Source: a virus (Duplodnaviria; Heunggongvirae; Uroviricota; Caudoviricetes). Taken from it: a stretch of 30,614 nt of DNA. Where the stretch lies: positions 1 to 30,614 of IMG/VR virus record IMGVR_UViG_2724679239_000009; one strand, 5' to 3'. Shown here piece by piece: positions 29,612 to 30,614 of this stretch; within the stretch, counting starts at the first letter, position 1; each line of letters starts with the position of its first letter. The notes under the pieces are model-generated. The model did not search any database. It saw nothing but the letters and a program-made list of their open reading frames with translations, and was not told where the DNA came from. The position numbers and the translations under genes are program-made.

Positions 29612-29863
29612 ATGTACGAATTAACTCTATCGCCAGCAGAGATTCAAGAGATCACGAAATACGAGCGATACACAAAACAGCAACACCAGTTAAGGCTGCA
29701 CGGTATCCCATTTGTAATCGGTCCTAAAAACGAACCAATAGTTCTTCGCAGGGATATTCCACACGGACTGACTACGATGCCAAAAGCACCTGAACTAGTT
29801 TCCGCTGAACCCGATTTTGAGGCGCTGAACAATGGGAAGACCAAGAAAAAACAAAAAAGATAA
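29612..29863 (+). CDS. Putative excisionase-like protein
   Basis: 83-aa basic ORF immediately upstream of and overlapping int. Assigned by position. Confidence 0.45.
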   Translation: MYELTLSPAEIQEITKYERYTKQQHQLRLHGIPFVIGPKNEPIVLRRDIPHGLTTMPKAPELVSAEPDFEALNNGKTKKKQKR

Positions 29864-30614
29864 TGCACTACCACCGCGTGTTAGATCGAATGGTTACAGT
29901 TACGTGTGGAAACCCGAAGGAAGCACAAGAACTATAGGGCTCGGAAGAGTACGGGAAACCAGCGTAGCTAAAGTCTGGCAAAATTATGAACTGGAAAAAG
30001 CAAAACTCCACAACATAATGACCGTCGCTAAATTATGGCACATGTTTATGGACTCCCCTGCATTTACAGAACTGGCACCCCGAACCCAAAAAGATTATCG
30101 ACAACATCAGAGGGCGTTGCTGGCGGTATTCGGTAAAGTGCTTGCTGATAATGTAAAAATTGAGCAAGTAAGAATTTTCATGGATAAGCGGGGACTTGAG
30201 AGCAAGACCCAGGCAAACCATGAGCTGGCAAGCCTGAGTCGCGTATACGGATGGGGATATGAGCGTGGGTATGTGAAAAATAATCCATGCAAAGGCGTCA
30301 GAAAATTCACGCTTAAAGCCCGCACTGTTTACATAACCGATGAACAGTATGCGGCGATATACGCGGAAGCAATTCCACAGTTACGCATTGCAATGGAGAT
30401 TTCCTATCTTTGTGCGGCAAGGCTCGGTGATGTTCTCGAGCTGAAATGGCAGGATATTATGGATAAAGGGATCTACATTGAGCAAAACAGGCACCAAACA
30501 AATCAAGGAATGGTCTCCGCGATTACGTACGGCGATCCAGTTAGCCCGAAATGTATCTTCCGGCATATGCGAGTATGTGATCAGCACAACCAAAGGCGGG
30601 AAAGTCATCGCTAA
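29832..30614 (+). pseudogene. int: Lambda-family tyrosine integrase, apparently frameshifted near 30480
   Basis: N-terminal arm-binding region MGRPRKNKKDNALPPRVRSNGYSYVWKPEGSTRTIGLGR... resembles lambda Int. Near 30480 the frame reads YIEQ then turns non-integrase-like and stops at 30612, while the +1 frame reads SKTGTKQIKEW...ISTTKGGKVIA and stays open to the window end. Confidence 0.55.

Follow-up and report, generated by a model that had tools for sequence, protein, structure and literature searches.

Very probable recent inactivation of int through deletion of a 5-nt repeat unit in a lambdoid prophage at serT of Escherichia albertii K7394

The integrase gene (int) at the right end of the viral DNA stretch analysed here (the window, 30,614 nt, which corresponds to positions 1-30614 of contig BBWA01000012.1 in assembly GCA_001515005.1, with int at 29832-30614 there) loses its reading frame before a complete integrase has been encoded, which raises the question of whether the gene is truly broken and, if so, by which event, how long ago, and with what consequence for the prophage. 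The open reading frame (29832..30614, + strand) begins with ATG at 29832, ends with TAA at 30612-30614, and encodes 260 amino acids. Upon translation in three frames, frame 0 read …DIMDKGIYIEQN, then RHQTNQGMVSAITYGDPVSPKCIFRHMRVCDQHNQRRESHR, until the stop codon; up to the break it corresponded to …WQDIMDKGIYIEQN, and the next 41 residues resembled no integrase. Codons 1-219 are native (…YIEQN) and are followed by 41 codons out of frame. The +1 frame read …LSKTGTKQIKEWSPRLRTAIQLARNVSSGICEYVISTTKGGKVIA and remained open through the last base of the window. Its mechanically called ORF, starting from TTG at 30478 (30478..30614, + strand, within the window), comprises 122 codons and extends to contig position 30846, 232 nt past the window (6647..7015 of the source contig locus, L003).

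When the window was aligned with two intact Escherichia coli alleles (99.4% and 95.9% identical to it), one gap of exactly 5 nt was observed, GAG-----CAAAACAGGC versus GAGCAAAACAAAACAGGC. The intact alleles contain GAG CAAAA CAAAA CAGGC (encoding E Q N K T G), and the window contains GAG CAAAA CAGGC. The surviving CAAAACA is located at 30483..30489 (+ strand), one CAAAA unit being gone from the ancestral CAAAACAAAACA tract; the precise breakpoint inside the CAAAA repeat is not placeable. Accordingly, the tract in the deletion state is GAGCAAAACAGGC (CAAAAC in the window), that of the intact E. coli alleles CAAAACAAAAC, and codons 218 and 219 of the window are CAA and AAC, followed by AGG as codon 220 where the intact gene has AAA. 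Both the site (about 30486) and the size (5 nt) of the lesion had thus been called correctly in the original prediction. The ancestral codons proposed there differed slightly from the real ones: by analogy with lambda Int, caa agc aaa aca ggc had been expected, encoding Q S K T G, whereas the ancestor carried caa aac aaa aca ggc, which encodes Q N K T G. When CAAAA was put back in the source contig, a 339-aa protein resulted that matched WP_024227504.1, the integrase of E. coli CAU16175, in every one of its 339 residues, and across the 1015-nt int gene the deletion is the sole difference from the CAU16175 allele. This identity upon repair, together with the +1 frame being open for 122 codons, makes it implausible that the split frame arose by chance. 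As two tandem copies were present ancestrally, exactly one is gone, and the remaining gene is collinear, the lesion has the form of a repeat-unit loss. Given the repeat context, the most likely cause of losing one unit of (CAAAA)2 would be slipped-strand mispairing during replication, which would have shifted the frame after Asn219 and yielded the 260-aa product.

Where the frame breaks is critical for the function of the enzyme. Alignment with HMMER to the structures of lambda Int (PDB 1Z1B, 1Z1G, 1P7D, and 1AE9) covered residues 1-319 (E = 2.6e-18) and revealed the same three-domain layout, in agreement with the lambda Int-like character and the frameshift that had been proposed for the gene. 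Residues 1-167, comprising the arm-binding and core-binding domains, align with residues 1-182 of lambda Int and are unaltered in the window; of the catalytic domain just the start, including R197, remains in frame. In this alignment, R197 corresponds to lambda R212, K220 to K235, H289 to H308, K292 to R311, and H312 to H333. Y321, which lies in the motif LIYDR just outside the aligned region and is invariant in the family, is taken from its position to be the equivalent of the lambda nucleophile Y342. N219 is the last native residue, and the codon that would follow it in the intact gene is that of the catalytic lysine K220. Frame 0 therefore retains R197 alone of the catalytic residues, whereas K220, H289, K292, H312, and Y321 are encoded in the +1 frame; for those downstream of the window, this is where the original prediction had expected them. 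The set R-K-H-R-H/W-Y is thus not present in the one polypeptide encoded by the window ORF. Consistently, the Pfam profile Phage_integrase (PF00589) matched the window ORF with 19 bits across residues 168-216 only, which is below its cut-off of 27.1, but the intact allele with 33.3 bits across residues 168-323. The gene is a tyrosine recombinase gene by descent, but what it now encodes is an incomplete member of the family.

Independent of the lesion, the family deviates from lambda Int at the position of the second catalytic arginine. An invariant lysine, K292 (FHDIKAKG), occupies it in all 44 aligned sequences (55-96% identity), where lambda has R311 (FHELRSLS), so that the catalytic set of the family is R-K-H-K-H-Y rather than R-K-H-R-H-Y. 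The motif with K292 lies beyond the window, at about 30696-30707 of the contig (6865-6876 of L003). The same Arg-to-Lys substitution occurs in two unrelated Pseudomonas integrases (2026 paper, PMC12884075).

A frame broken in the DNA need not be broken in the protein if programmed ribosomal frameshifting or transcriptional slippage bypasses the shift and full-length, active Int is made. The A-rich site, the rare AGG codon following it, and the fully open, unaltered +1 frame could be seen as indications of such an event. However, the listed E. coli homologues and all 44 aligned family members have the gene in frame, with no conserved recoding site. Furthermore, slippage by neither +1 nor -2 at GAG CAA AAC AGG C can recreate both AAC and AAA ACA; the codons for Lys220 and Thr221 would stay unrestored, and any fusion product would lack the invariant catalytic lysine. 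Programmed frameshifting was rejected on these grounds, neither of the two tests for a recoding site having pointed to one, and the chance that it operates here is considered negligible. As Q218, K220, T221, and G222 are invariant in the 44 family members, which stem from many genera of Enterobacterales and share 55-96% identity, the in-frame gene must be regarded as the ancestral state. The integrase family is large (1,765 members in a cluster at 90% identity). Five truncated members of this cluster (P0123, P0125, P0127, P0129, and P0133) were considered as cases of slippage at the same site, but none has a frameshift there: all read YIEQNKTGTKQ, and their calls seem to be incomplete at the N or C terminus.

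The intact form of the gene is widespread in E. coli. Of 5,426 complete E. coli genomes, 747 contained the region when searched by megablast with positions 29600-30614 of the window as the query. Each of the matches listed spans 1020 bases, compared with 1015 in the window, and is annotated as an intact "tyrosine-type recombinase/integrase" behind a DUF4224 gene. The homologues thus do not share the frame of the window, and the comparison with intact genes that had been suggested for the locus came out in favour of a frameshift. With a 131-nt query around the deletion (30430-30560), the deletion was absent among the matches listed, from about 740 E. coli genomes, each of which spans 136 nt, and no E. 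coli genome matched at ≥99% identity. The exact deletion junction was also absent from the species-representative genomes and from the viral contigs of IMG/VR, which indicates that the deletion allele is not widespread. The exact 260-aa product was found to be encoded in three assemblies: GCA_001515005.1 (BBWA01000012.1), GCA_003569025.1, and the Logan assembly of run SRR7290927. Their DNA is 100% identical over the overlaps of 8.1 kb and 2.2 kb, and to judge from this identity they represent one clone, or one strain sequenced repeatedly; they hence support the reproducibility of the lesion but not its independent origin.

This bears on the question of whether the 5-nt gap is real, or an artefact of sequencing or assembly, in which case the living strain would have an intact int. 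In favour of an artefact, the tract is rich in A and low in complexity, the source is a draft assembly of 59 contigs, and the three identical carrier assemblies could all derive from one strain. Against it, the same truncated ORF is present in two NCBI assemblies and in a separately assembled SRA run, and the K7394 draft has 77x coverage. The usual error of sequencing platforms is an indel of 1 nt in a homopolymer, not the loss of a whole 5-nt repeat unit, which also speaks against an artefact. Resequencing had been proposed as a check, and the two further assemblies, which may come from the same strain or from clonal isolates, serve this purpose with identical DNA and an identical truncated protein. 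Recurrence of the deletion in three identical assemblies renders a one-off slip of the assembler unlikely; an assembly error was rejected because of this concordance, and an intact int in the living strain is deemed highly improbable.

The deletion is very young. Over the stretch of about 1.56 kb between the xis start and the far end of the serT fragment downstream of int, the locus differs from that of CAU16175 by one synonymous SNP (in xis) and the deletion only, and after repair the protein does not differ from that of the E. coli allele, both of which argue for a very recent event. Directly past the serT fragment and the att region, divergence rises to about 10%. The same data are relevant for whether the truncated protein, or both halves of Int jointly, might still have a biological role. 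The arm-binding and core-binding domains are complete, and the N-terminal 219 residues could conceivably bind the arm and core sites of att, either without catalysis or as a dominant-negative factor; alternatively, the fragment starting at TTG 30478 might complement the truncated protein, as this +1 ORF of 122 codons encodes K220, H289, K292, H312, and Y321, and AAAGGGA lies 7 nt ahead of its TTG. However, the split would fall into a β-hairpin of the catalytic domain and leave R197 on the other fragment, and the ORF from TTG was called only mechanically. The allele is, moreover, confined to one clone and has accumulated zero substitutions, and the lack of substitutions gives no sign of selection in either direction. 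A retained role of this kind is therefore considered very doubtful.

The chromosome that carries the lesion is that of Escherichia albertii K7394, not of E. coli. Contigs BBWA01000001-59 belong to this strain, a human symptomatic isolate from Japan, 2008 (supplement, PMC4700944), and its draft assembly consists of the 59 contigs at 77x coverage mentioned above. The chromosomal flank of the prophage shares no more than about 89% identity with any E. coli, and a genome scan with the serT-terminator pattern matched several other Escherichia species, whose representatives are 77-90% identical to the flank. Beyond int, the contig continues with the last 60 nt of the tRNA gene serT (7157-7216 of L003), the serT terminator (7225-7251 of L003), and then yccA, tusE, yccX, and rlmI. 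ARAGORN detected no complete tRNA at attR, and the 3′-terminal 60 nt of serT alone are present there; the sequence which we take to be the serT reference is supported by an exact match over these 60 nt. As the duplicated 3′ part of serT is located at the int-side end of the prophage (attR) and is followed by yccA, the prophage is integrated in serT, that is, in a tRNA gene. This agrees with the listing of serT among the sites of lambda-like prophages in E. albertii (supplement, PMC4700944).

The window does not contain the whole prophage. Its left edge is base 1 of BBWA01000012.1, within tail genes, so that attL and the end with the tail fibre are off the contig. Its right edge coincides exactly with the premature int stop, and 232 nt of int as well as attR fall outside. 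The boundary of the region may thus have been drawn from the truncated int gene call, and region boundaries based on gene calls may be misplaced by such frameshifts.

In sum, int of the lambdoid prophage in serT of E. albertii K7394 is, with high confidence, a recent pseudogene that arose through loss of a 5-nt repeat unit, and the prophage is defective. The gene should accordingly be labelled a pseudogene and the serT prophage of K7394 classed as defective. The 260-aa product has neither the catalytic lysine nor the two histidines, and it also lacks the tyrosine nucleophile and the residue at the position of the second arginine. Judged by the biochemistry of lambda Int, it would be unable to cleave and rejoin DNA, and the missing residues make loss of excision the expected outcome. 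The partner of the integrase in excision is unaffected: xis (29612..29863, + strand), which overlaps the start of int by 32 nt, is intact and encodes a DUF4224 protein of 83 aa belonging to the PHROG excisionase family (Pfam PF13986 at 1.8e-09; phrog_1266, excisionase, at 6.5e-23), with an amino acid sequence identical to that of the E. coli gene product WP_000273158.1. Xis would be left without its catalytic partner, and the prophage would not be able to excise by means of its own enzyme; a compatible integrase encoded elsewhere in the genome, or by another prophage, could act in trans.

A second lesion affects the portal gene (8652..11214, - strand), in which the original prediction had placed an IS2. 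An element of 1331 bp was indeed found at 9750..11080 (- strand), flanked by a target duplication of 5 bp (GCCAG at 9745-9749 and 11081-11085). The element is bounded by TGGATTTGCCCC… and …GGGGGCCAGTCTA; HTH_Tnp_1 and rve domains are encoded in its two ORFs (136 and 301 aa), and its identity to E. coli copies of the IS3 family reaches 99.6%. The length and the ends agree with what we take to be canonical for IS2, and together with the 5-bp duplication and the orfA/orfB domains they place the element in IS2 (IS3 family). The insertion interrupts the portal gene after about codon 43, leaving an N-terminal piece (11081-11214) and a C-terminal piece (8652-9749), the latter of which matched Pfam Phage_portal at 1.4e-100. 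Apart from the IS, its sole interruption, the portal gene is collinear with its intact counterpart in E. coli EPSSH018 (10953-12179 of L006) and matches it at 99.9%.

Head assembly would thus be blocked independently of int, and the element is best described as a defective prophage in early decay that carries two independent lesions, one in int and one in the portal gene. From these two lesions it can reasonably be inferred that the prophage is "locked in the chromosome", as had been suggested for the locus. Two further possibilities are regarded as very improbable: that the 260-aa product binds att sites and hinders related phages that use serT, or that the CAAAA repeat serves as a rare, reversible switch of excision.

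The head and tail module (1-9749 and 11080-15633 of the window) is 99.93% identical to that of the E. coli EPSSH018 prophage, even though the host chromosomes differ by about 11%, which points to a recent exchange of phage between species. The early/immunity region is, in comparison with EPSSH018, mosaic, with stretches of 93-96% identity or none matched. The locus is a neat illustration of a phage that was recently shared between Escherichia species and then rapidly inactivated.

Comparison with known systems supports classifying the lesion as ordinary prophage decay. Among the closest known systems are E. coli prophages that encode WP_024227504.1, such as those of CAU16175 and EPSSH018: they share the same xis, the neighbourhood with a 3′-5′ exonuclease and dicB, and the location adjacent to yccA, and their Int protein is identical to that encoded here once CAAAA is restored. 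They differ in that the window is 5 nt shorter, has IS2 in the portal gene and another early/immunity region, and resides in an E. albertii chromosome. With lambda, the prophage has in common that xis is located directly upstream of, and overlaps, int and that integration adjoins its own int gene, and the two integrases share the N-terminal MGRxR…LPP and the YxEQxKTG hairpin. The sequence relation is only distant, however (phmmer, 69.8 bits), K292 is invariant in this family as opposed to R311 in lambda, and the copy studied here is frameshifted ahead of the equivalent of K235. Whereas attB of lambda is located between gal and bio, the present prophage resides in the tRNA gene serT. Disrupted int genes have been described for the lambdoid prophages Sp3, Sp11, and Sp12 of E. 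coli O157:H7 Sakai (PMC2669165). These resemble the present case in that int of a lambdoid prophage is inactivated in addition to other lesions, as is typical for prophage decay; integrase and host are different, and here a single, very recent deletion of a repeat unit is found in a gene that is otherwise unchanged. The lesion is nothing unusual.

Several further features of the prophage were observed. In its early region, at 18915-20649 (- strand), a defence/toxin-antitoxin pair of the RosmerTA type is encoded, consisting of RmrA (368 aa, with HTH and M78 peptidase; PADLOC, 6e-105) and RmrT (216 aa; 4.6e-25). The antitoxin RNA sok was detected at 20968-21139 (- strand; Rfam, 107.5 bits), which indicates a toxin-antitoxin locus of the hok/sok type inside the prophage. 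Between a Ren-like gene and hok/sok, an ORF of 343 aa is located at 21342-22373 (- strand), for which no PHROG match was found but which weakly resembles SIR2-like domains (Pfam SIR2_2, 1e-05; PADLOC Aga_SIR2 and PDC-S21, about 1e-05 to 1e-06) and possibly represents cargo with a role in defence. Two phage-borne tRNAs, tRNA-Gly(UCC) and tRNA-Thr(UGU), are encoded at 15610-15763 (- strand), near the late-gene regulator/lysis region.
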